Below, piece after piece: positions 4,292 to 39,869 of a stretch of DNA of 64,000 bases (its first letter is position 1; every line of letters begins with the position of its first letter). The stretch comes from Coriobacteriaceae bacterium (GTDB taxonomy: Bacteria; Actinomycetota; Coriobacteriia; Coriobacteriales; Coriobacteriaceae), in assembly GCA_025992755.1 (NCBI GenBank), contig DAJPGF010000001.1:442308-506307 (forward strand), written 5' to 3'. Below the pieces are notes generated by a model that saw nothing but the letters and a program-made list of their open reading frames with translations, had not been told where the DNA came from and did not search any database. The position numbers and the translations under genes were made by a program.

Positions 4292-4354
4292 TTGCGGTGA
4301 AATAGTTCCTATCTGGGGCATCAACCAGCCCATCCAGGAACTATTCCACCGCAA
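4292..4354 (+). terminator. Long hairpin + T-tract. Copy 1 of a repeated terminator-like element.
   Basis: Arms ttgcggtgaaatagttcct (4292-4310) / aggaactattccaccgcaa (4336-4354), followed by ctttgtttttg. It sits directly after the hydrolase stop. The same arms recur at 17462-17524 and 24907-24969. Confidence 0.6.
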
Positions 4355-4365
4355 CTTTGTTTTTG

Positions 4366-5212: not shown

Positions 5213-5359
5213 GAGCCTATGTTCCTTAACGGTATATTTCTAAAAGCAAATACGTTTCACTTGAATAGCTCAGTTGAATTATAGAACGACCAGCTAAATC
5301 ATGCTACTTTGCGCCGATACGTAAAAATACGCTTACCGAAGAATACCTACCGTTCAGGA

Positions 5360-5376
5360 TTGTATACAATATACAA
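5360..5376. promoter_or_regulatory. Candidate GntR-type operator palindrome in the divergent promoter region
   Basis: ttgtatacaatatacaa has perfect 7-bp arms TTGTATA/TATACAA. TTGTATACAA is itself a 10-bp palindrome with the GT..AC core typical of GntR/FadR operators. It lies in the AT-rich region between the GntR gene and the DDAH-like gene. Confidence 0.4.
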
Positions 5377-5467
5377 AACAGGAAAACCGCCCTAAGATAA
5401 AGACATCGAAAGGAAGGCGGGCGCGAAGAAGTCCCGCTCTCTGCTAAGAGATCCAAGGAGGATCATC

Positions 5468-6244
5468 ATGACCAAGTTCAGCCACGTCATCATCCGCCGC
5501 CCCGGCAAGTCCCTGAGCAATGGCATCACGAGTGCCCCCGAGCTTGGCCAGCCCATCTACGAGCGCGCCATCGAGGAGCACTACGATTACGAGCATGCGC
5601 TCGAGCAGTGCGGCGTTGACGTGTCGGTGCTGCCGGCACTCGAGCAGTATCCCGACAGCTGCTTCGTCGAAGATCCGGCCGTCATCACTCGCTGCGGCGC
5701 CATCATTACCAACCCCGGTGCCGATAGCCGCAACGGCGAGAAGGACGAGATCGAGCCGGCCGTCCGTCGCTTCTTTGACGACGAGCATGTCAAGCACATT
5801 GTTTCTCCGGGCACGCTCGACGGCGGCGACGTCATGATGGTCGGTGACCATTTCTACGTCGGTCGCTCCGCTCGTACCAACGAAGAGGGCATCCGCCAGT
5901 TCTGTGAGATTCTCGAGGGCTGGGGCCTCGAGGGTTCTGAGGTTCCGCTGGAGGAGGTCCTGCACCTCAAGACGGGCGTCAACTACATCGAGGACAACAA
6001 CATGCTCGTCTCTGGTGAGTTCATCGATAAGCCCGACTTTGCCCAGTACAACAAGATCGTCGTGCCCGAGGACGAGGCGTACGGCGCCAACTGCATCTGG
6101 GTCAACGGTACGGTCATCGTTGCCGAGGGCTATCCGACTGTGCTCAAGGCCGTGCAGGATCTGGGCTACAAGACACTCGTCGTTGACACCTCCGAGTATC
6201 GCAAGGTCGACGGCGGCCTTTCTTGCCTGTCGCTGCGCTTCTAA
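5468..6244 (+). CDS. DDAH / amidinotransferase-superfamily hydrolase (dimethylarginine dimethylaminohydrolase-like)
   Basis: 258 aa. Motifs: PDSCFVEDPAVI, LDGGDVMMVGDHFYVGRSARTN, and the C-terminal catalytic Cys context VDGGLSCLSLRF. RBS AAGGAGGATCATC precedes the ATG. Confidence 0.75.
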   Translation: MTKFSHVIIRRPGKSLSNGITSAPELGQPIYERAIEEHYDYEHALEQCGVDVSVLPALEQYPDSCFVEDPAVITRCGAIITNPGADSRNGEKDEIEPAVRRFFDDEHVKHIVSPGTLDGGDVMMVGDHFYVGRSARTNEEGIRQFCEILEGWGLEGSEVPLEEVLHLKTGVNYIEDNNMLVSGEFIDKPDFAQYNKIVVPEDEAYGANCIWVNGTVIVAEGYPTVLKAVQDLGYKTLVVDTSEYRKVDGGLSCLSLRF

Positions 6245-10815: not shown

Positions 10816-11128
10816 GGGCGCGTTGATGCTCCGCGCTTTTGGGCGAGCAACAATTCAATAAATATGAGCCAAAATACCGGCAGTTGTCGGCCTGGGGGAC
10901 TGTCCTACGCTGCAGATTGCCGTTCGCTGCCTATTTGCTGCCGTTTACGGATTCGTAAATACTTGCAATCGTCGGTCGATTTAACCGCATTACGCGATGC
11001 CGATGCGCATTTTGTGTGCCCCTTTCTACAATCACTTTGTGTCTATTGCCGAACATGTCTTCCGTTTCGCCTGTGTGGGGACGTGGGCTGCAATAGTCGT
11101 TTATAGAGGCTCATTGAGGAGGGAATTG

Positions 11129-12793
11129 ATGAAAGAAAAATTCCAATCGTTCGGAAAGGCAATGCTCGTTCCGATTACGCTCATTGCCATTTCCGGTCTC
11201 TTTTTGGGTATCGGCAGCGTTTTTACGACCGAACTGACCCTTGTGTCCCTTGGCGTTAATTGGGACTGGTATGCCGCTTCGCCGCTCTTTACGTTCTTCT
11301 CGGTATTTAAGGGTCTCGGCGAGGTAATCATTGGAAACCTCGGTGTTTTGTTTGCCGTCGGCTGTGCCTTCTCCTTGTCTCGCAAAGAGAAGGGCTGGGC
11401 TGCCTTTTCTGCCCTTGTCTGCTATCTCACCATGCTCAAGACGGTTGAGATTCTGCTTGGAGCAGCTGGCTTGGCTGCCGACAATACAACGGTGGAAGCT
11501 CTTCAGAAGGTCGGCCTTACGTCCATTCAGGCGAGTGAGCAGTCCGCACTCTACACTACCTCGCTCGGCTTTTTTGGCTACAGCTCTGGTGTCTTTGGCG
11601 GCATTATCGTGGGCTGCCTGGTCGCCTGGATCACCGGCCGTTTTTACAAGACCAAGCTTCCAACGGCGCTGGCGTTTTTTGCGGGCAGTCGAACGGTCCC
11701 CATTGTATCGCTGGTCGCCGGTGGCGTCCTGGGCGGCATCATGTACTTCGTCTGGCCCGTCATCGGTGGATGCTTCTCGGGTATTGCGACGTTCGTGAAA
11801 GGCTCCGGTCTGGTCGGTACGTTTGTCTATCGCTGGGTGCTCGAGAGCCTTGTGCCGTTTGGCTTGCATCCGCTGCTCGAGACGCCCATGTATTGGACTG
11901 AGCTTGGCGGCTCCATGGTCGTCGATGGAACGCGCGTGGTGGGCAATAGCGCCATTCAGCTTGCACAGCTCGCTTCTCCCAGCAGCGACAAGCTCTTGGT
12001 TAGGGCCTTCATGGCCGGCTATGGCATTAACGATTACGCGTTGTTCCCGGGCATCGCCCTTGCTATGTGGTCTTGTGCCAAGCCCCAGAACCGCAAGAAG
12101 GTTGCTGGTCTTTTAATCCCCACAGTGATTTCGACTGTTTTCTTTGGCGTCACGGAGCCTATTCTCTTTACGTTCCTGTTTGCCGCCCCCTGGCTCTACT
12201 TTGGCGTTTACGCTCCGCTTTCCGGACTGGGTGAAGTTCTCTCGGAGGCAATGGGCGTTTCGGTGTACCAGGGAAATATCAAGGACCTTATCCCATTCTT
12301 ATTCCGCCCCGAGAAGCTTAATCTGCTTCCGTACCTTATTCTGCTCCCCGCCTTTTTCCTGGCAGCTTTCTTCCTCTTCCGGTTCTTTATTACTAAGTTC
12401 GATATCAAGACGCCCGGTCGAGACGATGGTGACGATATTGAGTTGATCAACAGCAGAGCCGAGTTCGAGGCAAAGGCCGCTGAGGCAAAGGGCGAGTCTG
12501 GTAGCACTCCCGAGAAGGCGGTCCAGGACCGTGCGACCAAGGACAGCGCGCTTGCTGTCGGCATTGTCGAAGCGCTTGGTGGAGCCGACAACATTGATGA
12601 TCTTGACAACTGCATCTCACGTCTTCGCGTGATTGTCAAGGATGGTTCTAAGGTTGCAGACGACGAGGTGTTCACCAAGAATCTTGAAGCTATGGGCGTT
12701 ATCCGCCTGAGCGACAAGGCAATCCAGGTCATTTACGGTCCTCGTGTCGGCGAAGTCGCTTCTGAGGTGCACGAAGTTCTCGGTGACGAGTAA
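11129..12793 (+). CDS. PTS EIICB component, maltose/alpha-glucoside (GlvC/MalP-like)
   Basis: Polytopic EIIC body, then a C-terminal EIIB-Glc domain with the phospho-cysteine context DNCISRLRVIVKD. Start ATG 11129 after GAGGAGGGAATTG. Neighbours are an RpiR regulator and a GH4 enzyme, as in the B. subtilis glvA-glvR-glvC arrangement. Confidence 0.85.
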   Translation: MKEKFQSFGKAMLVPITLIAISGLFLGIGSVFTTELTLVSLGVNWDWYAASPLFTFFSVFKGLGEVIIGNLGVLFAVGCAFSLSRKEKGWAAFSALVCYLTMLKTVEILLGAAGLAADNTTVEALQKVGLTSIQASEQSALYTTSLGFFGYSSGVFGGIIVGCLVAWITGRFYKTKLPTALAFFAGSRTVPIVSLVAGGVLGGIMYFVWPVIGGCFSGIATFVKGSGLVGTFVYRWVLESLVPFGLHPLLETPMYWTELGGSMVVDGTRVVGNSAIQLAQLASPSSDKLLVRAFMAGYGINDYALFPGIALAMWSCAKPQNRKKVAGLLIPTVISTVFFGVTEPILFTFLFAAPWLYFGVYAPLSGLGEVLSEAMGVSVYQGNIKDLIPFLFRPEKLNLLPYLILLPAFFLAAFFLFRFFITKFDIKTPGRDDGDDIELINSRAEFEAKAAEAKGESGSTPEKAVQDRATKDSALAVGIVEALGGADNIDDLDNCISRLRVIVKDGSKVADDEVFTKNLEAMGVIRLSDKAIQVIYGPRVGEVASEVHEVLGDE

Positions 12794-12855
12794 AACGCGC
12801 AAGTGGCTTTCAATTGCATAGCGCAATTCCAGGGCTTGGCTTCCTATCGCATGAT

Positions 12856-13608
12856 TTAGGGGGCCAAGCCTTCTTGTTTTAGATTGTCAAGGCAGATACT
12901 CAATAGTTCTTCGAATGCGAGAATACAACTTCCGGTAAAGCAGTTAGGCTTAACGTTCTTAAGATCCATTGGGTGATCGTCATGTATCGTAAAGATCGCG
13001 TCTGCCGTCTTGGCGAGTTCACTGTCTTCGTTGCCGGTAAACGCGAGGGTCGTAATGCCCGCGTCGTGGCATGCCCTTGCGGTTTCTAGGATGGCTTCTG
13101 TCTGGCCCGATTTGGATATGAGCATCATGCAGCTGAGCGTATTTCGGTTGGATTCGACAAACTGATCGGTTTCTAGGAAGTCCTGTATGACGGCCAAAAA
13201 GCCAAGTCCAACGAGCTTGGTCGCCATGTACTGCGCAACGATGCGTGAGAAGCCCTCTCCGTTTACTCCGATCATTCTGTTGCGATGCAGTGCGGCGATG
13301 AATACGTCTACATCTCCGGTGTGGCATACGAAGTGGACGCTACTGTCTTTGAGTGATTGATTCATTTCGCGGGAGACATGCTGAAGGTGCTTGAGATCGT
13401 ACATCATTTCGCGGTAGCCACGGTAGCCGAGCTTTTTAGAAAGCCTGATGACTGTCGTCATGCTGGTAAAGCATGCCATGGCGACGGGTTTTATGCCAAT
13501 ATCATCGAGGGTGTCGATATTGTTGAGCAGGTATTCGAGTACGCTTTGCTCGGTTTCGGATAGCTTTGCGGCTGAGTAGAGCTTGGAAATCTGCTTTTTA
13601 TCAACCAT
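12856..13608 (-). CDS. MurR/RpiR-family transcriptional regulator (HTH + SIS domain)
   Basis: HTH_6-like N-terminus (SETEQSVLEYLLNN...MTTVIRLSKKLGYRGYREM) and a SIS domain (MMLISKSGQTEAILE...AGITTLAFTGN). Start at ATG 13608 (MVDKKQ) after GGAAGGGG, rather than the track start 13749. Confidence 0.85.
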   Translation of the reverse strand: MVDKKQISKLYSAAKLSETEQSVLEYLLNNIDTLDDIGIKPVAMACFTSMTTVIRLSKKLGYRGYREMMYDLKHLQHVSREMNQSLKDSSVHFVCHTGDVDVFIAALHRNRMIGVNGEGFSRIVAQYMATKLVGLGFLAVIQDFLETDQFVESNRNTLSCMMLISKSGQTEAILETARACHDAGITTLAFTGNEDSELAKTADAIFTIHDDHPMDLKNVKPNCFTGSCILAFEELLSICLDNLKQEGLAP

Positions 13609-13718
13609 CGGTGCCCCTTCCCGCCGGACGTGTGTGGCCGCTTCCGTTGCGTAAATAATAACTCCTTGGGGAATTCCTTTCCCGCCTTGCAGCCGGGGCG
13701 GGAAGCGGCCCTCCATGC

Positions 13719-13733
13719 TGGATACAATATCCA
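13719..13733. promoter_or_regulatory. Palindrome TGGATA-CAA-TATCCA in the RpiR/GH4 divergent region (candidate operator)
   Basis: Perfect 6+3+6 inverted repeat between the divergent regulator and GH4 genes. No family consensus was checked. Confidence 0.3.
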
Positions 13734-13781
13734 AACACAGGCGAACCATGCAATATTGAATGTGCTATTGGGGGTTTCGAT

Positions 13782-15155
13782 ATGAAACTTACGGTCATAG
13801 GTGGCGGTGGCGTCCGCTCCATGTTTTTGGCAAAGAGCATAGCCCAGCAGGCGTCATCGCTTGGGATCGACGAACTTGTGTTTATGGACAATGATCCCGA
13901 GAAGCTGCGCATCTACGGTGGCCTTGCCGCCCATGTCTCGGGCATGCTTTGCCCCACGCTTAATTTTTCACTGACGGGCGATGCAGTCGAGGCCGTTAAG
14001 GACGCCGATTACGTGATCACGACGATTCGCGTCGGTGGGGACCATATGCGCGTTCGCGATGAGCGCATTGCTCTTTCACATGGGGTTCTTGGCCAAGAGA
14101 CGACTGGCGCAGCCGGCGTGTCTTTTGCCATGCGCTCTGTCCCTGCGCTTGCTTCGTATTGCGAGTTAATCAAGAAGTACGCAAAGCCGGGCGTCAAGGT
14201 GTTTAACTTTACTAATCCCGCTGGCGTCGTATCTCAGGCCCTACGCGATATGGGCTATGATTTTACTTATGGCATTTGCGATGCCCCCTCGGGCATGTTG
14301 CATCAGTTTGCCGAGTATAAAGGCGTTGATCCCGCATCGGTTCAGGGCGAGTGCTATGGACTCAACCACCTCTCGTTCTTCCGCAATGTGACGGTTGACG
14401 GCGAGGACATCATGCCCGACTTGATCAACGACGACGGGGCATATGCTCATACAGATCTTAGGTTCTTCGAGAAGGATCTCGTTCTAAATCGCGGATGCGT
14501 GCCAAATGAGTACCTATACTATTTCTACTATCGCGAGCGCGCCGTTGCCAACGTTCTCTCTTCGCCCCAGACGCGCGGCGAACTCATCGAAGAAATTAAT
14601 CGAGAAATGACGAGCGAGCTTGCATCTATCGATATTGAGAACGACTTCGAAAAAGGCCTCGCGTGCTTTGAGAAGTGGTACGGAATGCGCGAAAACAACT
14701 ACATGGCGGCCGAGACGGGTATTCATCGCGACAAGCCGTGGACGTTTGACGTGTACGGCAAAGATGCTGGCGGATACGCGGGTGTCGCGCTCCGTTTCAT
14801 GGATATTGCTCGCTCTGGCAAGACGCAGCAGATGATCCTGTGCACCCCCAACAATGGCGCTATTCCCGGCCTTCTCGATACAGATGTCATTGAGTCAACG
14901 TGCGATATCTCCACCGATGGCTGTGTACCGCATCGCGTCGAAGCCGATTCTGTGCCCGCGGGAAACCTCGAATTGATTCGTCGCGTCAAGTACTACGAGC
15001 GCACCGTGGCGCGTGGCATCGTTAACCGATCGAAGCGCGACATTGTCGAGAGCCTCGCGATGCACCCGCTCGTTAATTCGTACTCCTTGGCGAAAGATAT
15101 CGCCGCGCAGTACTTTGAGCTTAACCGCGACTACATCGACGGCTGGACAGACTAG
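13782..15155 (+). CDS. Glycoside hydrolase family 4 (6-phospho-alpha/beta-glucosidase)
   Basis: N-terminal Rossmann MKLTVIGGGGVRS, FNFTNPAGVVSQAL and GICDAPSG motifs typical of NAD/Mn-dependent GH4 enzymes. Sits in a PTS/RpiR context. Confidence 0.85.
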   Translation: MKLTVIGGGGVRSMFLAKSIAQQASSLGIDELVFMDNDPEKLRIYGGLAAHVSGMLCPTLNFSLTGDAVEAVKDADYVITTIRVGGDHMRVRDERIALSHGVLGQETTGAAGVSFAMRSVPALASYCELIKKYAKPGVKVFNFTNPAGVVSQALRDMGYDFTYGICDAPSGMLHQFAEYKGVDPASVQGECYGLNHLSFFRNVTVDGEDIMPDLINDDGAYAHTDLRFFEKDLVLNRGCVPNEYLYYFYYRERAVANVLSSPQTRGELIEEINREMTSELASIDIENDFEKGLACFEKWYGMRENNYMAAETGIHRDKPWTFDVYGKDAGGYAGVALRFMDIARSGKTQQMILCTPNNGAIPGLLDTDVIESTCDISTDGCVPHRVEADSVPAGNLELIRRVKYYERTVARGIVNRSKRDIVESLAMHPLVNSYSLAKDIAAQYFELNRDYIDGWTD

Positions 15156-15245
15156 TCTGGACGTTAAAACTAGAAATTATGGATGGGCGGACCGGCGTTT
15201 ATATTGGCGCCCGTTCGCCCTGCCTAGTAAGAAAACGGGTATAGA

Positions 15246-16073
15246 GTGAACTTGCGAGAGAACTTCAATGTCTTTCTGGAATCGGGCGATCGGGCGAAGG
15301 AATGCTGGAGTGGCTGCACGATGGCGTTATATATTCCCTTGTTTGTTATGAGCGCGCTTCAACTTGGTGTATCAAACGTTGCAACTGAGCTCGCCTATAT
15401 CAATCCGTCCATTACGCTTGTCTGCACTGTGGTCGCGGCCTTTTTAAACCTGCTTCTATCGAATGTGGCTTTTTCATTTTTTGCCGTCGACCGGTCCAAA
15501 GAGACGGTGCAACCGGCTCGAGCTCCTCAGGTTTATCTCTTGGCCTCGACGGTTCCCCTCCAGATTTCTGGGGCGCTGCTACTTTATTTGGTTCACTTGA
15601 TTTTATCGGTAATTGTAGTCTTTGCCTCGCTTGCGAGCAGTCATCTCGGGGTGTTGTGCTCGCTTGTGGTGGCAGTAATCGTGACGCTTCTTTCCGCGTC
15701 GTTCGTATTCGTGTTGATTGAAGATGCGGACGTGGAGCAGGGGGGACTACGAGGCATTCGGTTTGCACCAGGCTACGTCATGCGTTCGATCGCGGTGCTT
15801 CGTTCCTCCTGGAGAGAAATCGCGCGTCCCGCAACGCTGCTGGTGGCATGGAACCTGGTTGCAAGTTGCGCTATCCAGGTTCTTGTTGGATGGGTAGTTT
15901 CGAGTGCGGCGCTGCCGTCGGCACTTTCAGTGACGGCGCTTGTACATGAGGGACTTTATTATGGGGCGTTTGCCTATATGCTGCTTTTGCTAGTTCATTG
16001 TGCGGTTGCGAGTTGGCTCGAAATTGACGTGCTCATGGGGGTGTCCTTGTGCGTATCCGAGCAGGCGCGATAG
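15246..16073 (+). CDS. Hypothetical polytopic membrane protein
   Basis: 275-aa ORF (GTG start) with about 6 long hydrophobic segments. No recognisable motif. The coding call rests on ORF length and TM-like composition only. Confidence 0.5.
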   Translation: MNLRENFNVFLESGDRAKECWSGCTMALYIPLFVMSALQLGVSNVATELAYINPSITLVCTVVAAFLNLLLSNVAFSFFAVDRSKETVQPARAPQVYLLASTVPLQISGALLLYLVHLILSVIVVFASLASSHLGVLCSLVVAVIVTLLSASFVFVLIEDADVEQGGLRGIRFAPGYVMRSIAVLRSSWREIARPATLLVAWNLVASCAIQVLVGWVVSSAALPSALSVTALVHEGLYYGAFAYMLLLLVHCAVASWLEIDVLMGVSLCVSEQAR

Positions 16074-16247: not shown

Positions 16248-17444
16248 ATGGCTCAGGCAAGACAAGATGGTATCTCACTCAAACAGTGGCTCCCGCTTAT
16301 CGGGCTCGCCTGTTGCGCGTTCGTGTTCAACACATCGGAGTTCATGCCCATCGGCCTTTTGACTGATATTGCCGCATCGTTCTCGCTCACCGAGGCCCAA
16401 GCCGGCATCATGATTTCGGTCTACGCCTGGGGCGTCATGCTGCTGTCGCTGCCACTCATGGTGTTTGCCTCGCGCTTTGAGTTCAAGCGTATGCTGCTCG
16501 GCGTGCTCGCCGTGTTTTCTCTGGGTCAGTTCCTGTCCGCTGTGGCACCGACATATCCCATACTGGTTTGTGCACGCCTGGTGGTCGCCTGTGCGCATGC
16601 CGTGTTCTGGTCAGTCGCCTCGATCATGGCCTCGCGCCTGGTCGACACCCGCCACGGGGCGCTCGCCATCAGCATGATCGCCACGGGCTCGTCCATCGCG
16701 CAGATCTTTGGCCTGCCGATCGGCCGCGCTATCGGCCTGGCCGTGGGCTGGCGCATGACGTTTGCCGTGGTCGGGGCCTTCTCTGCCGCCGCAGTGGTGT
16801 ACCAGGCAGCGGTGTTCCCGGCCATGCCGGCGGGTGAGCGCTTTACCGTTAAGCAGCTGCCCGAGCTGCTCAAGAACCCGTTCCTCCTCGCGCTCTACGC
16901 GGTCACGGTCTTTATGGCGACCGGCTATTACGCAAGCTACAGCTATATCGAGCCCTTCCTGGCGCAGGTCGCTCACGTCGACGCGGGCGCCATCACCATG
17001 ACGCTGACGGCGTTTGGCTGCTCTGGTCTGCTCGGAAGCTGGCTGTTTGGCCGCCTGTTCGATGGGCATCGCTTCCCGTTCTTGGCTATTACGCTCTCCG
17101 GCGTGCCGGTGGCTCTGCTGCTCATGGGTCCGGCCGCATCGTCGCTCGCTGCGGTTCTCGCTGTTTGCGCGCTATGGGGCTGCTGCGCTACGGCCTTCAA
17201 TGTGGCGTTCCAGGCCGAGCTCATCAAGTACACGCCGGCGGACTCGTCGGCTGTCGCCATGTCGATCTTCTCGGGCCTTTTTAATCTCGGTATTGGCACG
17301 GGCACGGCGATTGGTGGCGCCGTGGTGTCGGGCCCGGGCATCGCTTGGATCGGCTACGCGGGCGGCACGATCGCCGTCGTGGGCGTCATCCTCGCCATCA
17401 CCGTGCTGTTCCCGGCCATACGCCGCGCAAAGCCCGTCGCCTAA
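16248..17444 (+). CDS. MFS transporter (sugar-efflux/DHA1-like)
   Basis: 398 aa, 12 TM-like segments, with the MFS loop motif GRAIGLAVGWRMTF. Its last about 20 codons and its terminator are duplicated at 24826-25006. Confidence 0.85.
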   Translation: MAQARQDGISLKQWLPLIGLACCAFVFNTSEFMPIGLLTDIAASFSLTEAQAGIMISVYAWGVMLLSLPLMVFASRFEFKRMLLGVLAVFSLGQFLSAVAPTYPILVCARLVVACAHAVFWSVASIMASRLVDTRHGALAISMIATGSSIAQIFGLPIGRAIGLAVGWRMTFAVVGAFSAAAVVYQAAVFPAMPAGERFTVKQLPELLKNPFLLALYAVTVFMATGYYASYSYIEPFLAQVAHVDAGAITMTLTAFGCSGLLGSWLFGRLFDGHRFPFLAITLSGVPVALLLMGPAASSLAAVLAVCALWGCCATAFNVAFQAELIKYTPADSSAVAMSIFSGLFNLGIGTGTAIGGAVVSGPGIAWIGYAGGTIAVVGVILAITVLFPAIRRAKPVA

Positions 17445-17562
17445 TCACGTCACTTCATCAGTTGCGGTGGAATAGTTCTTGTTTAAGGCCTCTGAAGGCC
17501 CAGGCAGGAACTATTCCACCGCAACTTATTTTGGGGGAGAGGATGCGCGGCGGGCATGCGTA
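17381..17562 (+). repeat. Left direct repeat (MFS 3' end + terminator hairpin + about 40 nt)
   Basis: Manual alignment with 24826-25006. From ccatacgcc to ttattttgggggag (about 125 nt) I count one 1-nt indel and about 6 mismatches. Similarity continues more weakly on both sides. Confidence 0.8.
17462..17524 (+). terminator. Hairpin + T-tract terminator of the MFS gene. Copy 2 of the repeated element.
   Basis: Arms ttgcggtggaatagttc / ggaactattccaccgcaa, followed by cttattttggggg. Confidence 0.6.
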
Positions 17563-17570
17563 TAATAAAA

Positions 17571-17616
17571 CTGAGGCCGACCCGACGTTGCATTGGGACG
17601 ACCTCAGTTTTGTTTT
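17571..17616. terminator. Bidirectional hairpin terminator at the 3' end of the island operon
   Basis: Stem ctgaggccg (17571-17579) / cgacctcag (17599-17607). It is flanked by aaaa on one side and ttttgtttt on the other, so it is followed by a T-run on either strand. Confidence 0.65.
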
Positions 17617-17635: not shown

Positions 17636-18016
17636 CTACAGCTCATCTTGGGGGACGACGGCTGTAAGTTTTTCGTTTTCAAATACCGCAGCAAGTCCGT
17701 GTTCGGGGTCAAAGCGATAGTTGCACATGAGTGCCGCTTTGCGAGCATCATCGCTTCGAAGTACCACGATGCTGGTCGGAATAACGTATCTAAAGATATT
17801 CGTAACGGGGCTCTCAATCTGATCGCCGTCTCTTTCGAGGCAATAATCTTCGATTGCTTCCTTGCTGCCCTCAACGGTATCCCAGCTTGCAAGCAGGGCG
17901 TCCTTTGCTTCCTTTTGAATGTCGAGGACGTCTTGATCCGTGTCGCACTCGTAATAGACGGGGAGCGAGAAATCCCTACCCCACAGAATCATGTCGTTAG
18001 TCATCAAAGCCGCCAT
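17636..18016 (-). CDS. Small acidic protein in the immunity position (putative nuclease immunity protein)
   Basis: 126 aa (or 122 from the ATG at 18004). Its start overlaps the stop of the nuclease gene (caatggcggctttgATGActaa). No signal peptide or TM. Sequence ...NIFRYVIPTSIVVLRSDD...CNYRFDPEHGLAAVFENEKL. I cannot assign a family by eye. Confidence 0.6.
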   Translation of the reverse strand: MAALMTNDMILWGRDFSLPVYYECDTDQDVLDIQKEAKDALLASWDTVEGSKEAIEDYCLERDGDQIESPVTNIFRYVIPTSIVVLRSDDARKAALMCNYRFDPEHGLAAVFENEKLTAVVPQDEL

Positions 18017-18701
18017 TCTGGTTCAGTGCCTTCTTGATTTCACTTACGCCGCCGAGATGCCTACATGTCTCGTGCGCGAGGGTCGGGACAAGAGAGCACG
18101 TCTTCATATCATTATGCTCGTTCCAGGTGCACCCATTTGCCTCGCGCCATTTCCTGACGCCCTGGGGCGTCCAATCATCTTTGCCGTCACGTCGCTCGTG
18201 GTTCCAAACTTTTGCGCATTCAATGTCTGCCTTTTCATAGTTACCGACAATGCGCTCGCCATTTTCGCCTATCAGCGAAAGCCTATGCTGGCTCATACCT
18301 TGTATGGTTACCTTTGTTTCGGCGATGGGGCTGAAGTCAGGAATAGCATCTTTGTAGTTGATGCCCTCAACACCCTTACTTTGAAGAAGCTCACGAAGTC
18401 TGTCATCCGTGGGGACAAACATCGATTCCCCTCGGTCGCCCGACCATTCGCCATGAGAATTCTCCGTAGTTGGAGTACGGTCCAGCCGCTCCTTATAAGT
18501 CGAAGGATAGTCGCACGATTCCACCGAAGGCTTAATCAATTTGTCGGGATCAAGGGATTCATTACGGCCGACATTCTTAATCTCGGCCTTGGCTTCTTTT
18601 GATTCGGAACCAATAAGCTTGTCGGGATTAAACCCATGATTATCACTCGGCTTTGCTTCGCCGGCTTTCATTTGCCTGAGCTCCACTAGCTCACCTCGCA
18701 A
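17997..18701 (-). CDS. HNH/EndoVII-fold nuclease toxin-like protein (GH-E/WHH-like C-terminal domain)
   Basis: C-terminal GCTWNEHNDMKTCSLVPTLAHETCRHLGG (18048-18134) resembles the W-H-H ... LVP...H....H.GG signature of polymorphic-toxin HNH/EndoVII nucleases. Upstream is GEWSGDRGESMFVP...GINYKDAIPDFSP. Start is ambiguous: TTG 18701, GTG 18686 overlapping the upstream TAG, or ATG 18671. Confidence 0.65.
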   Translation of the reverse strand: MRGELVELRQMKAGEAKPSDNHGFNPDKLIGSESKEAKAEIKNVGRNESLDPDKLIKPSVESCDYPSTYKERLDRTPTTENSHGEWSGDRGESMFVPTDDRLRELLQSKGVEGINYKDAIPDFSPIAETKVTIQGMSQHRLSLIGENGERIVGNYEKADIECAKVWNHERRDGKDDWTPQGVRKWREANGCTWNEHNDMKTCSLVPTLAHETCRHLGGVSEIKKALNQNGGFDD

Positions 18702-21700
18702 TTCTCGTTCCAGTTGCGCCAGTCGTCATATGACTTTGAATCTTGCATTTGCAGGTACAGGATGTCTGTCATGATGCCCTGGATGATGACTCGCCTGGTG
18801 CGGTTGTCGATTTCGCGGTTGATGGAAGCCCCGAGCGCCGCTTCTGCCGCTCTTGTCAATTGCTCGGCTTCATTGCTGCTCTTGAGCTCACGTTCGACCG
18901 TTTTGACGACATCGGGGAACAGTGCGCTCATAATGGGCGCCAGCTTGGTCATGTGCGGTTCGTTAGGCGGGTTTTGGGCGGTGCGCAGAATACTGACCTT
19001 TGTGGACGCGCCGATATGGAGGCGATCGAGCCGTTCGCGAATGCTATGCAGTTCCGCCTCAGTTCCAATGCTGATGCCGTATGCCAACATGCGCGCTACG
19101 GAAAGAGCGTCATCGTGTTGGTTGTCTGTGGTGTCTTCGATGGGGCGGCTGTATGTAAAGTGCTCGCCATCCTCTGCTTTGGCGATCTTGCAGAGCACCG
19201 GCTCAACCCAATCGTTTTGGTAAATGGCCGCAACGCCCTTAGGCAAGCGTGCCAGCTCGACGATTTGTTGGTCGTTGAGGTTGGCAGCGCGACCGGCGAG
19301 CTCGCGGTCCGAAAGATCGGGCAGGCGATGGATGATCTTGGTATTTGTGTTGCGAATGGCTGCCATATCGAGAAGTCCGGGTGCTTGGTCGGCGATGATG
19401 AAGCCTTCGCCGTATGTACGCATCTCGGCGATGGCATTTGAGATCATCTCGACGCTCTTGCCTGTCAGGTCGCCGCTCTCCGAGCCTTGGCTGCTCGACG
19501 ATCGCTTAAGCAGGTTGTGCGCCTCTTCAAGCACGGTCAGATGGCGAAGCGGCTGGTTCATGCCCTTTTTCTCGGCCATGCGATGTTCTTGAAGTTTGAG
19601 TACAAGAAGACCCATGAGTAGGGATTTTGTTTCGGCGGAGCCAATGCGCGATAGATCGATGACTGTGTTGGCGTCAAAAAGCACGCTAGCATCGACTTCG
19701 TTCGACGAAAGCATCATGCCGTTGAGCCCGTTGGTGAGCGAGTTGAGACGCGTGAGCAGCGACCCCTTGTAGGCGCCCTTATTTTCGGCATCGTACTCGC
19801 TGGAGTCGAGAATCTCGCGGACGTTACGGGCAACATCTGCAAAGCAGGGAAAGAGATCGGCTCCATACGGGTTATCAGAAGCGGCAAGATCCCATCCGCA
19901 GTCTTCGTATGACCTGGCGACAGCGTCTTTAAGGACGGCGGGCATGGCGGCGTACATGGGCCAGCAAACATTAAAGATCTCAACGAGTCGGTCGAGGTGC
20001 TCCAGCACATGGATGCCGGACGGGAAGCTAAAAGGATTGATGCGCAGGAGCGGCGTGAATTCTGGATTGGTTCCAAAGACGTTTACGTCTTCGCGGCCCC
20101 CGTACACGTCCTTGTATTCGCCCTTGGCAGGTTCAATGACAAGAAAGTTGACCTGCTGATCGAGCGCCTGATCGAGGATGCGGCAGACGGTATTGGTCTT
20201 TCCTGCGCCGGTGCTGCCCGTAACAAAGGTGTGCGAGGCGAGCGAGTCTTTTGACAGGAACGTCCTAATGCGCTCCTCGCGATGCATATGGAAAACCTTG
20301 CCTATGCAAAGGCCTTGCTGGGGCTGCGTGCCATCGAACGTTGAGACATTGCGTCCAAAAGACGCACACTCGATAACGGGCAGCCCTGGGACGGATTTCT
20401 TGGGAAAGTTGAGCGAGTAGGCCAGCTCCTTGCCCGAAAGGGCAGTTGTTGCATCGACCGTTGCTGGGTAAACCGAAAAACTTGGATGTTGATCGAGCAG
20501 GGCGGGGGAGAGGGCAAAAGCAGGATGGCGCAAATCGCGAAGGTAGGAGCAGATTGCCGCGGCGTCGGCGCTTTGCTCTCCAAGGTCTCCGCGCCAGAGG
20601 TTTACTGCCGCCTGAGACATATAGGACTCTTTGCCCTGGGTGAGGGCGAGGTAGGTGTGGGCAACGTTGTTCGCGACGTTGTGGTCTTCTGATAGCACGT
20701 AGGCGCAAAAGTCCCACATGCCGAGTGCCGAGGCAAGGTCGTAGCGCTTCATTTGCAACTCGAGTATTTCGAGCGCGTGTTGGATGGAGTAATTCTTGAA
20801 CGTCTGTGTGATGCCTTCGTCGGCGCCGATGGTAGCGGTGACCGTGCTTGAGCGTGCGAACGATCCGCCAAAGTTGGCACCTAGATTTACTGCCTGTGAA
20901 ACACCGGAAGTCACGGAAGCTCCCTTAGAGACAGCCTTGCCAACACCGCTGGCGACGGCTTTGCCGAGTGAGTTTGATATGGCCTTGCCGGTAGATGAGC
21001 TCGTACCTTTTGCTGTAGACGTGGAGTGCGACGAGCCCTCGGAGTGGCTTGCGGATACGCTTAAGTCAACGCCTCCGCTCGAGGATTCATTTCTGCCGTC
21101 GGTGACCGTATCCGTGATGCTTTCGGTCGATGTGGACGAGTCGGTTACGCTCTCGTTGCTCGATTCCGAGGTCGACTCGTTTGTCGAGTCCGTTTCGTTG
21201 TAGTTTTGAGCAACAGCCTGATTGCCCCCCACCTGCCTGCCGGCACTCACGCCTGCATTGATGCCAATCGTCGCGGACGATCCGATGGAGTCGTTTTGGT
21301 GGTAGGTATAGTTGGTCGTCCATGAGGCATAGGGCGTCAGCAGTGAGTGGAGTTCAGCGAGACGGAGCTTGCGCGATTCGATATCGTAAATCGGGGTTGC
21401 GAGCAGCACGATAGTGTAGTCTTCGCTCGGCCTGCCAGGCACAATGCCGTCAAGAACTTTCTCAATGGTTTGCGTGACGAACTTCTCGTTCTTTTCGGCC
21501 GGAATATTCGAAACGGCGGCAACCGAAGACGAGCGTCGATTGTCTAGACACGGAATGGGGCCGCGGTTGGCGGGTCCCACTTCGGAACCGGGGAAGTTGC
21601 CCCTCAGGGCATCCGACATGCGCCGGGAAAAATTATCGGCGTCGATGTTGTCATGGGCATTGTCGCTGTTGACGACTGCGAGAAATACCTCGGTGCTTAC

Positions 21701-22117
21701 GCTAGTTCGATTAAAAACCAGCGCAATGTTGCAGTCTTCGTCAGAAAGAACGTCGTACACATTTACGAGCTTCTCGAGACTGTCCTCGTTGGGGTCGACG
21801 ATCCACTTCGTGATATTCATGAAGCGGATGTTGTTGTCGGCGTTAAAGCCCGTGGGGTATTCGATAGAGGGGTCAATCGGTGCGTATACATTTCGCAGTT
21901 GCGGCAGATAGGCGTTGTGAAGCTCAACGGCGGCAGTTGCCAAGAGCCGATTGGTGAGCTCGACAGCTTGCTCGTCTGCCGGATTCGGCTTTTCCGACAA
22001 GTATGCTGTTCGCTTTTTGTCGACCTCATCGAGTTGGGAGCTGCTGAGTACCGAGACGGTTGCGACCGCGTTGCCGGCTTTATCGGCAGCGCGCATAATC
22101 GCGTTTTTGATGCCCAT
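18686..22117 (-). CDS. Large HerA/FtsK-superfamily (DUF87-type) P-loop ATPase with an unknown N-terminal domain and a Ser/Thr/Gly-rich tract
   Basis: 1143 aa. Walker A FVTGSTGAGKT (20195-20218), LVIEPAKGEY shortly after, and Walker B LTVLEEAH (19517-19540), as in HerA/VirB4-like ATPases. Residues about 306-430 are low-complexity S/T/G. RBS GGAAGGAA precedes ATG 22117. Confidence 0.75.
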   Translation of the reverse strand: MGIKNAIMRAADKAGNAVATVSVLSSSQLDEVDKKRTAYLSEKPNPADEQAVELTNRLLATAAVELHNAYLPQLRNVYAPIDPSIEYPTGFNADNNIRFMNITKWIVDPNEDSLEKLVNVYDVLSDEDCNIALVFNRTSVSTEVFLAVVNSDNAHDNIDADNFSRRMSDALRGNFPGSEVGPANRGPIPCLDNRRSSSVAAVSNIPAEKNEKFVTQTIEKVLDGIVPGRPSEDYTIVLLATPIYDIESRKLRLAELHSLLTPYASWTTNYTYHQNDSIGSSATIGINAGVSAGRQVGGNQAVAQNYNETDSTNESTSESSNESVTDSSTSTESITDTVTDGRNESSSGGVDLSVSASHSEGSSHSTSTAKGTSSSTGKAISNSLGKAVASGVGKAVSKGASVTSGVSQAVNLGANFGGSFARSSTVTATIGADEGITQTFKNYSIQHALEILELQMKRYDLASALGMWDFCAYVLSEDHNVANNVAHTYLALTQGKESYMSQAAVNLWRGDLGEQSADAAAICSYLRDLRHPAFALSPALLDQHPSFSVYPATVDATTALSGKELAYSLNFPKKSVPGLPVIECASFGRNVSTFDGTQPQQGLCIGKVFHMHREERIRTFLSKDSLASHTFVTGSTGAGKTNTVCRILDQALDQQVNFLVIEPAKGEYKDVYGGREDVNVFGTNPEFTPLLRINPFSFPSGIHVLEHLDRLVEIFNVCWPMYAAMPAVLKDAVARSYEDCGWDLAASDNPYGADLFPCFADVARNVREILDSSEYDAENKGAYKGSLLTRLNSLTNGLNGMMLSSNEVDASVLFDANTVIDLSRIGSAETKSLLMGLLVLKLQEHRMAEKKGMNQPLRHLTVLEEAHNLLKRSSSSQGSESGDLTGKSVEMISNAIAEMRTYGEGFIIADQAPGLLDMAAIRNTNTKIIHRLPDLSDRELAGRAANLNDQQIVELARLPKGVAAIYQNDWVEPVLCKIAKAEDGEHFTYSRPIEDTTDNQHDDALSVARMLAYGISIGTEAELHSIRERLDRLHIGASTKVSILRTAQNPPNEPHMTKLAPIMSALFPDVVKTVERELKSSNEAEQLTRAAEAALGASINREIDNRTRRVIIQGIMTDILYLQMQDSKSYDDWRNWNENCEVS

Positions 22118-22126
22118 GCGATCAGC

Positions 22127-24496
22127 CTATTCCTTCCAATTAATGACGCGCGCAATGTACTCTTTTCGATTATTGAGCGTCTCGAGTTTTGCCTCGAGAG
22201 TGTTGATCTCCGCGGTTTGCCTGTTGATGTCTTCGACATGGCCATGGAGCACCGGGTTGTAGTCGGTGATATTGCTCGTAATTTGGCTGAGCAACTCGTT
22301 GAGCCATTCGGTAAAGCCGTAGGTATGCTCGCGCTCTATTTCGGCGCGTGCTTCGCAGAAACACCGTGAGATTTCGCGGTTGAATTTGTCTTCGACTTTC
22401 CTAAGCAAAAGCTTGTCAGATTTAAAGATGACACGGTCCATGAGCTTCAGTTCGGTAAAGTCTGCCTTGCTGAAAATAGGGCCCTTTGTCTTATCGAGCG
22501 CGAGGCCACGATATTTAAGAATGATATCGCCGACCTCTTGGCGCTTCTCTTCGGAAAGAGGATTGTCGCTGCTGGTGGCGATGCGATAGAGGGCATCGCG
22601 GCTATGCTCCGCACAGTCCTTCCAATAGCTTTGCGACAGCTCATCGATGGTCTGAGCTATTTGCTCGGTACATTCGTCATAGTGATTGATGACCTCGTTA
22701 AAGAGTTGGTCGGCGGCATCTTTGTCGGCTGTTCTTTCGGCAGCCTTTGCGTCGGATCTTTTTTGGAGCGCATCGGTGATGTCATCACAAAGGCCTTTGC
22801 CAACCTCCGCTAACCCAAATGTTGGCTGGGAGTCGACGTCCTTTTGCGTGTTGGCCGGGCTTCCTTTTATCGATTCGCCGAGCCTATTGAAAAAGTTAGG
22901 GGCGATTGAGTCAAACGCTTGCGCGGCTGCGTTCGACCGTTTTGAGTATTCGAGGCGCTCTCGCTTGTCTTCGGTAATGGCGCCTTGACGCGCCTGAAGC
23001 GTGTCAAGGTTGGTTTTCCACTGCTCGGCGGAAACGTTCCCGTCAATGGCGCCGGCATAGCTGGCCGAGGAGTCCAGCCTCGCATGCTCTCTGCAGTCTT
23101 CGAGCTGGTTGATGAGATTGCGCTTATCCTCTTCGAGCTCGGCTTCTCGCTGTGCTTTCTTTTGTTCGAGGTCGGTTTTCTTATCGGCAATCTCTTCTTC
23201 GGTTATGCTGACAATTTCTTGTAGGAGCGATTCCGACCTGCTGCATTTGTTGTAGGCAGAGTACCGCTCGGCAAACAGCCGTATTTCATTTTCGATACAA
23301 AAGAGTCCGCTGTTGGCAAGAAGGAGGTCCTTGCAAGCCTCGGATTCGCGGTTGGTTCTGCGCGAGATCTGTCCCGGAAGGATGTCGTAGCGGTAGAGCG
23401 TTTTGTAGAAGCGGCTTGTCGGATCTGTGTATTTACGCTGCTGATCTTCGAATTTTTCGGCATAGTTGTCGCTTATAAACTCGCTGGAGTTCTTTGAGCC
23501 TAGGCCGAGGATGGAAGAAACAAAGTAGATACCTTGACCGTAAAGGCTGGCTGGAATGGACCAACGCATGATTTGCGAGACGGCTTCATCGTCGAATCCT
23601 CCTTTGGGAAGGTCGGCGGAATCTGCTTTGTTGACTACGATCATGGCAAAGCGTTCATCGATTGCGGGAATCTGCTCTATTTCGTTGGAGAGGTTCTTGT
23701 TGTCCTTCGTATCGAGCGAGTTGTACTCTGCAACGAAAATGGGAAGGCCATTCGAGAGGCCCTCCATTGCCTGTTTGAGCACTCGGGCGTGATCGGCGTT
23801 GGAGGCGGAGTTTGAGCCCGGGGTGTCAAAGATGACAAACTCCCTATCATGGGGCCATGGATCGGTATCGCTAAAGGGCACCTCGATTCTGATCAGATCG
23901 GAGATGGTCTGGTCGTCTTCATCGGCATGGTATGAGTTAAGAACCTTGAGGGCACTGTTCATATGGGAGGCCATGCCGGGCATGGAGTCGGCCACTTTGG
24001 CCGCGATCTTGTCGTATAGGGGCTCCCCCATAAGCTCTTTGTTTTCCATGAGGCCATCAAGATCAAAACGTAGCAAGAATCGCCTGTTGCCACAGGAGAA
24101 TTGAACCATTGCGCGGTCTCGGTCTTTTGAACGTTTGATTTGAAATATGCGGGCCGTTACAGGCTCGTCGCCGCTGGGAAGGATCTCCATGCCGATGAGG
24201 GCGTTGATGAGCGTTGATTTGCCTGCGCTATAGCTGCCGAGCACACACAGCGGGATGATGTCGCTCGAGACATCGGTGAACTTCCTAATTTGCTCAGAAA
24301 CTTTTGTTCGCTCGGAGACTGATTCGTCTACAAGCCACTGGATTTCTCTGAAAACTTCGACAATCTCCGGCAAGACGTCTCGGGCGTTTGATAGATAACG
24401 CTCGTCTCGCATAGCCTCGTATGTGTTGGCGCGTGGTCCTTCGGTACAGATGGCGAGCAGCTCCTGCCATTCGTCATCCGCGCCTTCAAAATGCAA
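22127..24496 (-). CDS. Dynamin-like GTPase (bacterial dynamin family) with a long coiled-coil C-terminal half
   Basis: G1 GSYSAGKST (24212-24238), G3 DTPG (23816-23827), G4 NKAD (23621-23632). The C-terminal about 450 aa is charge-rich and helical. The track start is a TTG. The frame stays open upstream to 24637, and a good ATG/N-terminus lies in another frame (see 24544-24711). Confidence 0.75.
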   Translation of the reverse strand: MHFEGADDEWQELLAICTEGPRANTYEAMRDERYLSNARDVLPEIVEVFREIQWLVDESVSERTKVSEQIRKFTDVSSDIIPLCVLGSYSAGKSTLINALIGMEILPSGDEPVTARIFQIKRSKDRDRAMVQFSCGNRRFLLRFDLDGLMENKELMGEPLYDKIAAKVADSMPGMASHMNSALKVLNSYHADEDDQTISDLIRIEVPFSDTDPWPHDREFVIFDTPGSNSASNADHARVLKQAMEGLSNGLPIFVAEYNSLDTKDNKNLSNEIEQIPAIDERFAMIVVNKADSADLPKGGFDDEAVSQIMRWSIPASLYGQGIYFVSSILGLGSKNSSEFISDNYAEKFEDQQRKYTDPTSRFYKTLYRYDILPGQISRRTNRESEACKDLLLANSGLFCIENEIRLFAERYSAYNKCSRSESLLQEIVSITEEEIADKKTDLEQKKAQREAELEEDKRNLINQLEDCREHARLDSSASYAGAIDGNVSAEQWKTNLDTLQARQGAITEDKRERLEYSKRSNAAAQAFDSIAPNFFNRLGESIKGSPANTQKDVDSQPTFGLAEVGKGLCDDITDALQKRSDAKAAERTADKDAADQLFNEVINHYDECTEQIAQTIDELSQSYWKDCAEHSRDALYRIATSSDNPLSEEKRQEVGDIILKYRGLALDKTKGPIFSKADFTELKLMDRVIFKSDKLLLRKVEDKFNREISRCFCEARAEIEREHTYGFTEWLNELLSQITSNITDYNPVLHGHVEDINRQTAEINTLEAKLETLNNRKEYIARVINWKE

Positions 24497-24543
24497 TTCG
24501 ATTTTGTCGCCGCCGCCGCCGAACTCTTTGGCGAGGATGTCGA

Positions 24544-24711
24544 TTATTTCTTCGGCCTTAAAGGGGAAGAATCCCTTAACGATCTTCGTGCTATGGATGC
24601 ACTGTTGGGATTTGTGGAGGTTGTTATTTCTTGCCAGCCGTTATCCCATCGGAAGAACCGGACAATTTCTTGATATGGATTGCTGACGATCTTGATTTTA
24701 ATGTCTGCCAT
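24544..24711 (-). CDS. 55-codon ORF, probably the displaced 5' end of the dynamin-like gene (frameshift) rather than an independent gene
   Basis: ATG 24711 (AAAGGTAG upstream) gives MADIKIKIVSNPYQEIVRFFRWDNGWQEITTSTNPNSA..., then degenerates. The dynamin frame reads naturally from ...HSTKIVKGFFPFKAEEIIDILAKEFGGGGDKIELHFEG. The two join at about 24595-24602 if one base is restored. Confidence 0.35.
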   Translation of the reverse strand: MADIKIKIVSNPYQEIVRFFRWDNGWQEITTSTNPNSASIARRSLRDSSPLRPKK

Positions 24712-24825: not shown

Positions 24826-25006
24826 TTGGCAAGATCCTCGCCACCGCCGTAATGTTCCCAGCCATACGCCGGCAAAGCCCGTCGCCTAATCACGTCCCCT
24901 CATCAGTTGCGGTGGAATAGTTCCTGTTTAAGGCCTCTGAATGCCCAAGCAGGAACTATTCCACCGCAACTTATTTTGGGGGAGGGGATGCATGCTGGGC
25001 ATACAA
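24826..25006 (+). repeat. Right direct repeat, including a decayed, frameshifted copy of the MFS 3' end
   Basis: ggcaagatcctcgccaccgccgtaatgttcccagccatacgccg-gcaaagcccgtcgcctaa reads GKILATAVMFPAIRR, against GVILAITVLFPAIRRAKPVA* in the intact gene. The hairpin and downstream sequence are then nearly identical to 17445-17562. Confidence 0.8.
24907..24969 (+). terminator. Copy 3 of the repeated hairpin + T-tract element
   Basis: Arms ttgcggtggaatagttcc / ggaactattccaccgcaa, followed by cttattttggggg. Confidence 0.5.
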
Positions 25007-35387: not shown

Positions 35388-35393
35388 TTGACT

Positions 35394-39869
<4,476 letters not shown>

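Follow-up and report, generated by a model that had tools for sequence, protein, structure and literature searches.

What do a dynamin-like GTPase and a HerA-like ATPase do beside a nuclease toxin and a small acidic protein? The question is raised by four minus-strand genes (g1 to g4 in the direction of transcription) at positions 17636-24711 of a 64,000-nucleotide stretch of Coriobacteriaceae bacterium DNA (contig DAJPGF010000001.1, positions 442,308 to 506,307), hereafter called the window. A first-pass annotation had proposed that they form a co-transcribed conflict or defence operon, in which the two nucleoside triphosphatases (NTPases) either license a nuclease effector during abortive infection or drive the delivery of a toxin. 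Here we find that the genes are a conserved, autonomous and mobile module combining two NTPases with a leader-bearing polymorphic toxin and an immunity protein, that is, a polymorphic toxin system whose NTPase apparatus and leader type are both new. Between the two readings the evidence favours toxin delivery, to which the immunity families, the tandem toxin-immunity pairs of some relatives and the co-variation of leader and ATPase all point, whereas abortive infection is without specific support. We give a probability of about 55% to the reading that the NTPases would capture the toxin via its leader and transport it out of the cell, where it would serve interbacterial antagonism.

Four genes form a conserved operon

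The four open reading frames (ORFs) lie head to tail on the minus strand (22127-24496, 18686-22117, 17997-18701 and 17636-18016), and each gave a Pfam match above the gathering cut-off, for Dynamin_N, DUF87, WHH and DUF6985, respectively. g1 (22127-24711) is a dynamin-like GTPase gene and is frameshifted in the window; g2 (18686-22117) encodes a 1143-aa HerA/VirB4-like P-loop ATPase, identified by Pfam, AlphaFold2 (AF2) modelling and Foldseek; g3 (17997-18701) encodes an HNH nuclease toxin of the WHH/colicin-DNase type; and g4 (17636-18016) encodes a 126-aa DUF6985 protein that is acidic as described, with an isoelectric point of 4.2. Every motif quoted in the annotation was found, namely GSYSAGKST, DTPG and NKAD in g1 and GSTGAGKT, LVIEPAKGEY and LTVLEEAH in g2. 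g1 had also been read as an unbroken ORF from 24711, which is incorrect: the ATG there opens a 55-codon ORF in another frame, and the gene comes as a 5' fragment (24544-24711) and a main ORF (22127-24496). The gap between g1 and g2 is 9 nt, with GGAAGGAA ahead of the g2 start, and the two genes are translationally coupled; the g2 stop is overlapped by TTG and GTG starts of g3, for which an alternative ATG lies at 18671, and g3 in turn overlaps g4. The operon ends at an intrinsic terminator on the minus strand, a hairpin at 17567-17611 followed by UUUUAUUAU and thus by a U-tract. The hairpin folds at -27 kcal/mol (z = -5.1), which none of 200 shuffled sequences equalled; it was not picked up by a simple terminator scan and is shown by RNA folding instead.

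Gene order was surveyed in the best 80 of at least 544 relatives of g2, one genome per species being scanned. A g1 homologue stands directly upstream of g2 in about 75 of these 80 loci, and an ORF of 160-330 aa followed by one of 115-145 aa is nearly always found downstream. The GTPase and the ATPase, the latter 1100-1250 aa long, are strictly co-conserved. The adjacency of the four genes is conserved, far beyond chance, and the proposed co-transcribed four-gene conflict module is supported. The surveyed loci belong to Actinomycetota, Bacillota and a few others, their hosts including Collinsella, Bifidobacterium, Slackia, Olsenella, Lachnospiraceae, Ruminococcus, Carnobacterium, Treponema and Streptococcus (S. 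sanguinis, S. salivarius, S. suis and S. parasanguinis), among others. No further conserved gene came out of all-against-all clustering of the ORFs from about 9 kb upstream to about 7 kb downstream of g2, and Pfam found no recurrent family among 105 flanking proteins of 26 diverse loci, the commonest one, ABC_tran, accounting for 5 of the 105; the flanks are heterogeneous.

The module family is very large, already sequenced and unstudied. Relatives of g2 at E < 1e-30 fall into 2401 clusters at 50% identity; the window g2 itself has a 100% identical counterpart, a 'DUF87 domain-containing protein', in a Coriobacteriaceae metagenome-assembled genome (MAG), and is 94-99% identical to proteins of many Collinsella genomes. 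A phage origin of the module was rejected, because just 14 family loci were present in 2.9 million viral contigs. One Clostridia MAG (L031) carries, on the strand opposite to its main module and a few kb upstream of it, a second, divergent g2-like ATPase gene (3135-6218, minus strand; 1027 aa, E = 7e-71). Three loci of an outlying clade with different leader repeats (L080, L082 and L083) have a g1-g2 gap of 0.3-1.1 kb, and a small extra gene may therefore lie between the two.

Toxin and immunity types are exchanged at positions 3 and 4

g3 matched WHH at 41.3 bits (cut-off 25.1; 1.2e-10) and Colicin-DNase at 27.4 bits (5.9e-6). It had been likened to WHH and GH-E nucleases; the WHH half of this claim stands and the GH-E affinity was rejected, since Pfam gives WHH and Colicin-DNase only. 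g4 matched DUF6985 at 33.7 bits (cut-off 24.5; 6.4e-8) and is presumed to be a cognate immunity protein, predicted to act against the adjacent g3 toxin. No solved structure related to DUF6985 was found, nor any literature on this family in the searched papers.

Both positions are highly variable across the related loci. Among 64 position-3 proteins, Pfam assigned 23 to WHH/Colicin-DNase, 10 to Endonuclea_NS_2, 8 to LHH, 2 to HNH, 1 to Ntox15 and 1 to the DUF6782 metallopeptidases, showing that the C-terminal toxin domain alternates between HNH-fold and NucA-type nucleases and a metallopeptidase. The 63 position-4 proteins comprise DUF6985 (17), SUKH-1 (15), SUKH_5/6 (about 12), YezG-like (9), PoNi (3) and Tdi1 (1). 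Toxin and immunity clusters pair one to one, independently of the g2 clade; the WHH-DUF6985 pairing of the window, for example, occurs in 15 loci across all g2 clades. Within Collinsella, the median ratio of nonsynonymous to synonymous substitutions (dN/dS) is 0.11 for g1, 0.10 for g2, 0.26 for g3 and 0.16 for g4, and g3 is the fastest-evolving gene, with an amino-acid identity to the window copy of 71-85% as compared with 94-98% for g2. Judged by these sequence patterns, the genes at positions 3 and 4 behave like a classical polymorphic toxin/immunity cassette.

Ten clostridial loci, and likewise L023, have a second toxin of about 229 aa with an HExxH metallopeptidase motif, followed by a conserved partner of about 98 aa (for example at L033:8397-9385, L034:9071-10069 and L023:13429-14341); this pair is present neither in the window nor in the other Collinsella loci. 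In the members that we read, such as L034, the second toxin shares the leader of the first toxin of its locus. The HExxH toxin and the 98-aa protein (no family assignment) are a probable new toxin/immunity pair.

Toxin leaders follow the lineage of the ATPase

The g3 protein is 234 aa long from the TTG and 224 aa from the ATG at 18671, and its N-terminal leader is apparently disordered. The leader region holds two copies of a short linear motif at 18534-18632 on the minus strand, FNPDKLI (18612-18632) and LDPDKLI (18534-18554), which are conserved within Collinsella while their flanks are variable. The position-3 toxins of the related loci are built in the same way, their N-terminal 30-100 residues carrying short linear motifs whatever toxin domain comes next. 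One to three copies of the motif [FY][DN]P[DNSK]x[RLK][ILVM] ('FDPDKRI') occur in 22 of 63 such toxins, against a background of 0.0008 per 160 residues; another 'NFKxIKPE..MT..EA..FW' leader is found in 18 of the 63, and the outlying clade uses other short repeats (PKEIGE three times, LPxxIGE). Neither a signal peptide, nor a hydrophobic N-terminus, nor a known trafficking domain (LXG/WXG, PAAR, RHS, TPS, MuF etc.) was detected among the 64 position-3 toxins, the domains having been looked for with Pfam. The leaders are of a new type, short and apparently disordered.

When the leader classes were placed on the neighbour-joining tree of g2, they formed contiguous clades, whereas the toxin and immunity types were scattered over all clades. 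This co-variation of leader and g2 is the main evidence in our analysis, and the toxins therefore appear to be clients of the NTPases.

g2 resembles HerA and VirB4 equally

g2 matched DUF87 at 44.2 bits (cut-off 23.2; 3.2e-11) and is a P-loop ATPase of the HerA/FtsK superfamily, whose central DUF87/HerA domain carries Walker A (20195-20218) and Walker B (19517-19540) motifs, both on the minus strand; G634, K640 and E864/E865 were invariant in 32 of 32 sequences. The AF2 model (mean predicted local distance difference test score, pLDDT, 75) consists of an alpha/beta N-terminal region, a disordered loop, a HerA-type ATPase and a helical C-terminal tail. The Ser/Thr/Gly-rich tract noticed in the annotation is indeed 20% Ser and corresponds to an insertion at residues 268-436 (20810-21316, minus strand; pLDDT <50), disordered in the model, in which this 170-residue loop is looped out between two adjacent strands of the N-terminal domain. 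Foldseek matched the ATPase domain to HerA (4d2i, 4e-15), and also to HerA-NurA, SIR2-HerA and DUF4297-HerA, to the VirB4 C-domain (4ag5, TMt 0.76) and to DndH-C (TMt 0.75); the likeness to the secretion ATPase VirB4 equals that to HerA. The N-terminal region modelled alone had no PDB match at E <= 1e-3; the best, though weak, were to one chain of the ESX-3 translocon, at E = 3e-3, and to one of the R388 type IV secretion system (T4SS), at E = 1e-2. A match of g2 to CHMP1B (E = 0.003), which might have linked it to ESCRT-III, sits in the low-complexity, disordered Ser-rich region and was judged to be compositional.

The loop may also bear on where the protein works. In 18 of 115 family representatives it has a Gly/Ala-zipper segment of 30-45 residues with the hydrophobicity of a transmembrane segment (hydropathy value KD19 >= 1.6), GxxxGxxxG is part of the family consensus, and the loop of the window g2 holds an amphipathic Gly/Ala/Lys segment, GKAVASGVGKAVSKGA. 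Because of these three features, a membrane association of g2 through its Ser-rich/Gly-zipper loop is plausible. The NCBIfam model NF033849 ('ser_rich_anae_1, serine-rich protein') describes proteins which, like g2, have a serine-rich tract followed by an ATPase; it matched g2 residues 267-979 at 111.8 bits (E = 1.7e-32), so far under the cut-off of 650 that we regard it as a sister subfamily, and the model itself is without functional annotation.

The similarity to VirB4 raises the possibility that the module is a remnant or a minimal derivative of a conjugative T4SS, or of type VII secretion machinery (T7SS), having its other parts elsewhere and g2 as a VirB4/coupling-type or EssC-like ATPase. 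g2 matches full-length VirB4/TrwK in Foldseek and shares the two-part architecture of VirB4 (an alpha/beta N-terminal region and a C-terminal ATPase, TMt 0.74-0.76 for the ATPase fold), TrwB_AAD_bind scored 23.5 bits in Pfam, just above its cut-off, and the weak ESX-3 and R388 matches of the N-terminal region point in the same direction. However, the sequence similarity to VirB4 is marginal (16.5 bits against a cut-off of 590 for NCBIfam VirB4_plasma), FtsK_SpoIIIE remained at 17.7 bits, under its 24-bit cut-off, and the toxins have no LXG/WXG domains. Neither the window flanks nor the 105 flanking proteins from 26 loci include a T4SS or T7SS family, and no conjugation genes, such as those for a channel, a relaxase or a coupling protein, lie near the locus. 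The constant partner of g2 is instead a dynamin-like GTPase, which is foreign to both machines. We consider such an origin extremely unlikely.

g1 is a dynamin-like GTPase

That partner matched Dynamin_N at 67.5 bits (cut-off 27 bits; 1.9e-18). Its sequence carries the GxxxxGKS/T, DxxG and N/TKxD boxes that define the dynamin superfamily, of which it is by this sequence evidence a member; G1 lies at 24212-24238, G3 at 23816-23827 and G4 at 23621-23632, all on the minus strand. In an alignment of 38 orthologues, G1-G4 are invariant and an N-terminal domain of about 95 residues is strongly conserved. The profile built from these orthologues matched the bacterial dynamin-like protein BDLP (2j68, 8e-10), with further matches to Mgm1, Drp1, mitofusin and SynDLP, and the dynamin-like stalk is long and helical.

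No named system joins these parts

The four proteins were compared with Pfam, NCBIfam, PADLOC-DB v2 and PDB structures. In agreement with the annotation, no named system was found to join these parts, since PADLOC-DB v2 gives only partial matches: HerA and mad8 models on g2 (1e-17 to 1e-8), LeoBC on g1 at 2e-10 over residues 566-699 only, and LeoA on g1 at 2e-5 over 45 residues. The NCBIfam models were missed widely, with HerA_antiphage at 33 bits (cut-off 800) and HerA_antiphage_2 at 23 (cut-off 850) on g2, and DynA at 42 (cut-off 1600) on g1. We found no literature linking dynamin with DUF87, HerA or polymorphic toxins, although the coverage of the search was incomplete and an earlier description elsewhere is possible.

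Like the polymorphic toxin systems of Zhang/Aravind 2012, the module combines a conserved N-terminal region with toxin domains that vary at the C terminus, and has directly downstream an immunity gene that co-varies with the toxin domain; it differs from them in that its toxins have no recognised trafficking domain or signal. Dynamin is mentioned in neither of two foundational surveys of such systems, one of them being that of Zhang/Aravind 2012 (PMC3482391). Closest in logic are the EssC-dependent LXG systems (T7SSb) of Bacillota, which likewise occur in Gram-positive hosts and have an FtsK/HerA-superfamily ATPase beside small nuclease toxins (WHH, LHH, NucA), a conserved N-terminal targeting region with variable C-terminal domains, tandem toxin-immunity arrays (in the module, at some loci), and immunity proteins of the SUKH and YezG/DUF600-type families. 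Unlike them, the module has no EsaA/EssA/EssB, WXG100, LXG or Lap partners; g2 lacks the EssC architecture, having a single ATPase domain and no transmembrane helices; the leader is a short repeated linear motif rather than a helical LXG domain; and the obligatory partner is a dynamin-like GTPase.

The dynamin-superfamily GTPases of LeoABC/Eleos (the 'Dynamins' defence), B. subtilis DynA and M. tuberculosis IniA/IniC resemble g1, but the module has one dynamin-like gene and no tandem or fused pair, and g1 possesses an N-terminal domain of about 95 aa that is missing from the models and always stands together with a HerA-like ATPase and a toxin cassette. With a single dynamin-like gene and partial model matches, the module does not qualify as Eleos/LeoABC. 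SIR2-HerA/Nezha, DUF4297-HerA and the archaeal HerA-NurA are similar in having a HerA-fold hexameric ATPase beside an effector that attacks nucleic acids, and they are the best PDB matches of the g2 ATPase domain. In the SIR2 and DUF4297 systems, however, HerA is about 570-690 aa long; g2 is twice that length, includes a 600-residue N-terminal region as well as the Ser-rich loop, and misses the family models widely. The module has no SIR2, DUF4297 or NurA, it adds the dynamin-like gene, and its effector, a polymorphic toxin, comes with a dedicated immunity protein.

These likenesses underlie the abortive-infection reading, according to which infection or damage to the membrane is sensed by a HerA-like hexamer together with the dynamin-like GTPase. 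These would then either remove the immunity protein from the nuclease or supply the nuclease with DNA, and the nuclease would break down DNA within the infected cell. The g2 matches to HerA/mad8 and the g1 matches to LeoBC/LeoA are consistent with it, as is the presence of SIR2-HerA and DUF4297-HerA defence complexes among the closest solved structures. The effectors are mostly nucleases, the cassette forms a small mobile islet that is polymorphic for its presence (see below), and ResIII, SNF2, WYL or AAA_21 neighbours occur in a few related loci. On the other hand, the PADLOC and NCBIfam matches are all partial and far under thresholds, the neighbouring genes are not consistently defence genes, and the family is rare in viral contigs. 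Dedicated SUKH, YezG, PoNi and Tdi1 immunity proteins and tandem arrays are hallmarks of exported interbacterial toxins and not of the effectors of defence systems. Moreover, a metallopeptidase toxin is found with the same leader, and the ATPase is therefore not coupled to DNA cleavage as such. For these reasons we regard abortive infection as rather unlikely.

A candidate pathway for toxin export

How, then, could the NTPases act on the toxins? As background, FtsK/HerA-class ATPases drive T7SS and T4SS export, and the dynamin-like proteins IniA/IniC and LeoABC promote the release of vesicles and toxins. In our reading, the leader would be the address by which the toxin-immunity complex is picked up by the ATPase, by homology a hexameric pump, or by the GTPase. 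The Ser/Thr-rich Gly-zipper loop would anchor the ATPase at the membrane or insert it there, and the ATPase would act as a pump or loader, whereas the dynamin-like partner would do the membrane work, remodelling the membrane by vesicle scission or by local fusion or pore formation. The nuclease would then leave the producer and kill neighbours without the immunity gene. A more specific version, in which g1 and g2 constitute an unrecognised export pathway of monoderm bacteria, the hexamer reading the leaders and the loops and GTPase expelling the toxins by a pore or by vesicle scission, is tentative, and we would put it somewhat short of even odds.

Several observations weigh against export. 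The module encodes no dedicated channel or wall-spanning component, and all of its proteins are predicted to be cytoplasmic, which abortive infection would accommodate; no transmembrane helix or signal peptide is predicted in the four window proteins, the highest KD19 being 1.46. The membrane role of the g2 loop is drawn from sequence character and low-confidence modelling only, the fold matches of the g2 N-terminal region are weak (E >= 3e-3, TM <= 0.3), and the pairing of HerA with a nuclease, as in the PDB matches, is a recurrent anti-phage theme.

The classification of polymorphic toxin systems follows the way in which the toxin is trafficked. In hundreds of Gram-positive species, among them many dominant commensals of the human gut and mouth, the toxins of this module carry no known trafficking domain and are linked instead to a dynamin-like GTPase and a giant HerA/VirB4-like ATPase. 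If export is true, it would be a new secretion route, in effect a new type of secretion system in Collinsella, Bifidobacterium, Streptococcus sanguinis/salivarius and Lachnospiraceae, and would give a bacterial dynamin its first defined cellular client; the leader motifs could then act as a portable export or targeting tag. If instead the NTPases license the nuclease during infection, the module would be a new defence architecture with effectors gated by immunity proteins. Intact copies are available in tractable hosts, namely S. sanguinis ATCC 10556, S. salivarius and Carnobacterium maltaromaticum, and the presence/absence polymorphism in Collinsella provides natural sensitive and producer strains.

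The cassette is a mobile islet in Collinsella

Two direct repeats of about 170 nt, about 91% identical, bound a 7.3-kb cassette that contains the operon. Copy 1 (17388-17557, plus strand), delineated by repeat search, alignment and blastn, comprises the 3' end of a major facilitator superfamily (MFS) transporter gene and the palindromic terminator hairpin of that gene; copy 2 (24834-25002, plus strand), found upstream of g1 in the same three ways, comprises a degenerate duplicate of the MFS 3' end and the hairpin. Using a gapped DNA pattern from the MFS 3' end to the start of the amylase gene on the other side, we found the uninterrupted MFS-amylase junction in at least 120 human-gut metagenome contigs. 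In all 80 of the empty sites examined (L100-L179), the flanks overlap on a single repeat copy and the cassette DNA is absent; Collinsella populations are therefore polymorphic for the presence of the cassette. It encodes no integrase, so gain or loss may go by homologous recombination between the 170-nt repeats.

Dozens of Logan/ENA contigs that carry g2 have lengths of 7.3-7.9 kb, roughly that of the cassette, which fits a mixture of filled and empty alleles. A circular element, suggested by Logan contigs of 7.4 kb, was rejected: L001 ends inside the two hairpin repeats, because assemblies break at repeats. A third copy of the palindromic hairpin, about 77-79% similar, lies at 4282-4357 of the window and suggests a species-specific family of repeats, either terminators or resembling repetitive extragenic palindromes (REP-like).

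The mobility of the cassette is consistent with yet another reading, namely selfish addiction or kin lysis, in which toxin and immunity protein stabilise the islet or trigger the lysis of a subpopulation with release of extracellular DNA, and the NTPases control activation or maintenance. Flanked by the direct repeats, the cassette is gained or lost as a unit, it encodes neither an integrase nor a channel, and the immunity gene is kept in the window strain while the toxin and g1 decay, all of which such a reading would explain. Maintaining two large NTPases, both strongly constrained by purifying selection (dN/dS about 0.1), would nevertheless be an implausible cost for mere addiction, the co-variation of leader and ATPase points to an active client relationship, and the swapping of toxin domains and the multi-toxin arrays fit competition better. 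Addiction or kin lysis is thus very unlikely in our view, and toxin export for interbacterial antagonism remains the preferred reading.

The copy in the window is probably disarmed

In the other Collinsella strains L002 and L004, intact g1 encodes 860 aa. Alignment with these strains showed that the window g1 has a 1-nt deletion at about 24597/24598 (minus strand), at about codon 38, as well as an in-frame GGC insertion; the frameshift falls inside the conserved N-terminal domain of about 95 aa. The Logan contig L001 (SRR15275211) is 100% identical to the window over 7392 nt, deletion included, although it may not be independent of the window assembly. The frameshift could be an assembly error rather than true decay.

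The toxin is altered as well. In a MAFFT alignment of about 35 WHH toxins of the related loci, the signature reads W-H-E-x in almost all of about 33 aligned homologues and W-N-E-H in the window g3 (18114-18125, minus strand; Asn codon 18120-18122). The His after the Trp is, as we assume, the catalytic base of the beta-beta-alpha-Me site of the HNH/EndoVII folds. L065 (R-H-E-K) and L023 (F-H-E-C) have the Trp replaced and the His kept. Because g1 is frameshifted and the predicted catalytic His is an Asn, the window copy is probably disabled as a weapon while its predicted immunity is kept, g2 and g4 being intact. The likely state, a disarmed toxin beside a retained immunity protein, is a pattern expected in toxin/immunity ecology.

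Genes around the cassette

The genes on either side are of the housekeeping kind. On one side, the cassette is flanked by feoB, a cluster of sugar genes (phosphotransferase system (PTS), RpiR and GH4) and the MFS transporter gene, and on the other side by genes for an alpha-amylase, a uracil-DNA glycosylase (UDG) and an aminotransferase, followed by rplJ, rpoB, rpoC and fusA. The region between feoB and the MFS gene, which lies in a low-GC stretch (10997-16073; GC 0.52-0.57), encodes PTS EIIC and EIIB, the RpiR regulator, the GH4 glycosidase and a 275-aa protein without a Pfam match; feoB and the MFS gene are adjacent in Collinsella L002 and L004, and the region is thus a second strain-variable insertion beside the cassette. 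Just downstream of rpoC, a segment of low GC content (39955-41725; 0.527) encodes a sigma factor of the extracytoplasmic function (ECF) type (Sigma70_r2/r4) and an overlapping 358-aa ORF with no Pfam match, possibly an anti-sigma factor. RpoC itself (35388-39869) is 1493 aa long and has an unusual appendage, in which residues 1345-1395 match the helix-hairpin-helix domain of the RNA polymerase alpha C-terminal domain (PF03118, 1.2e-8).

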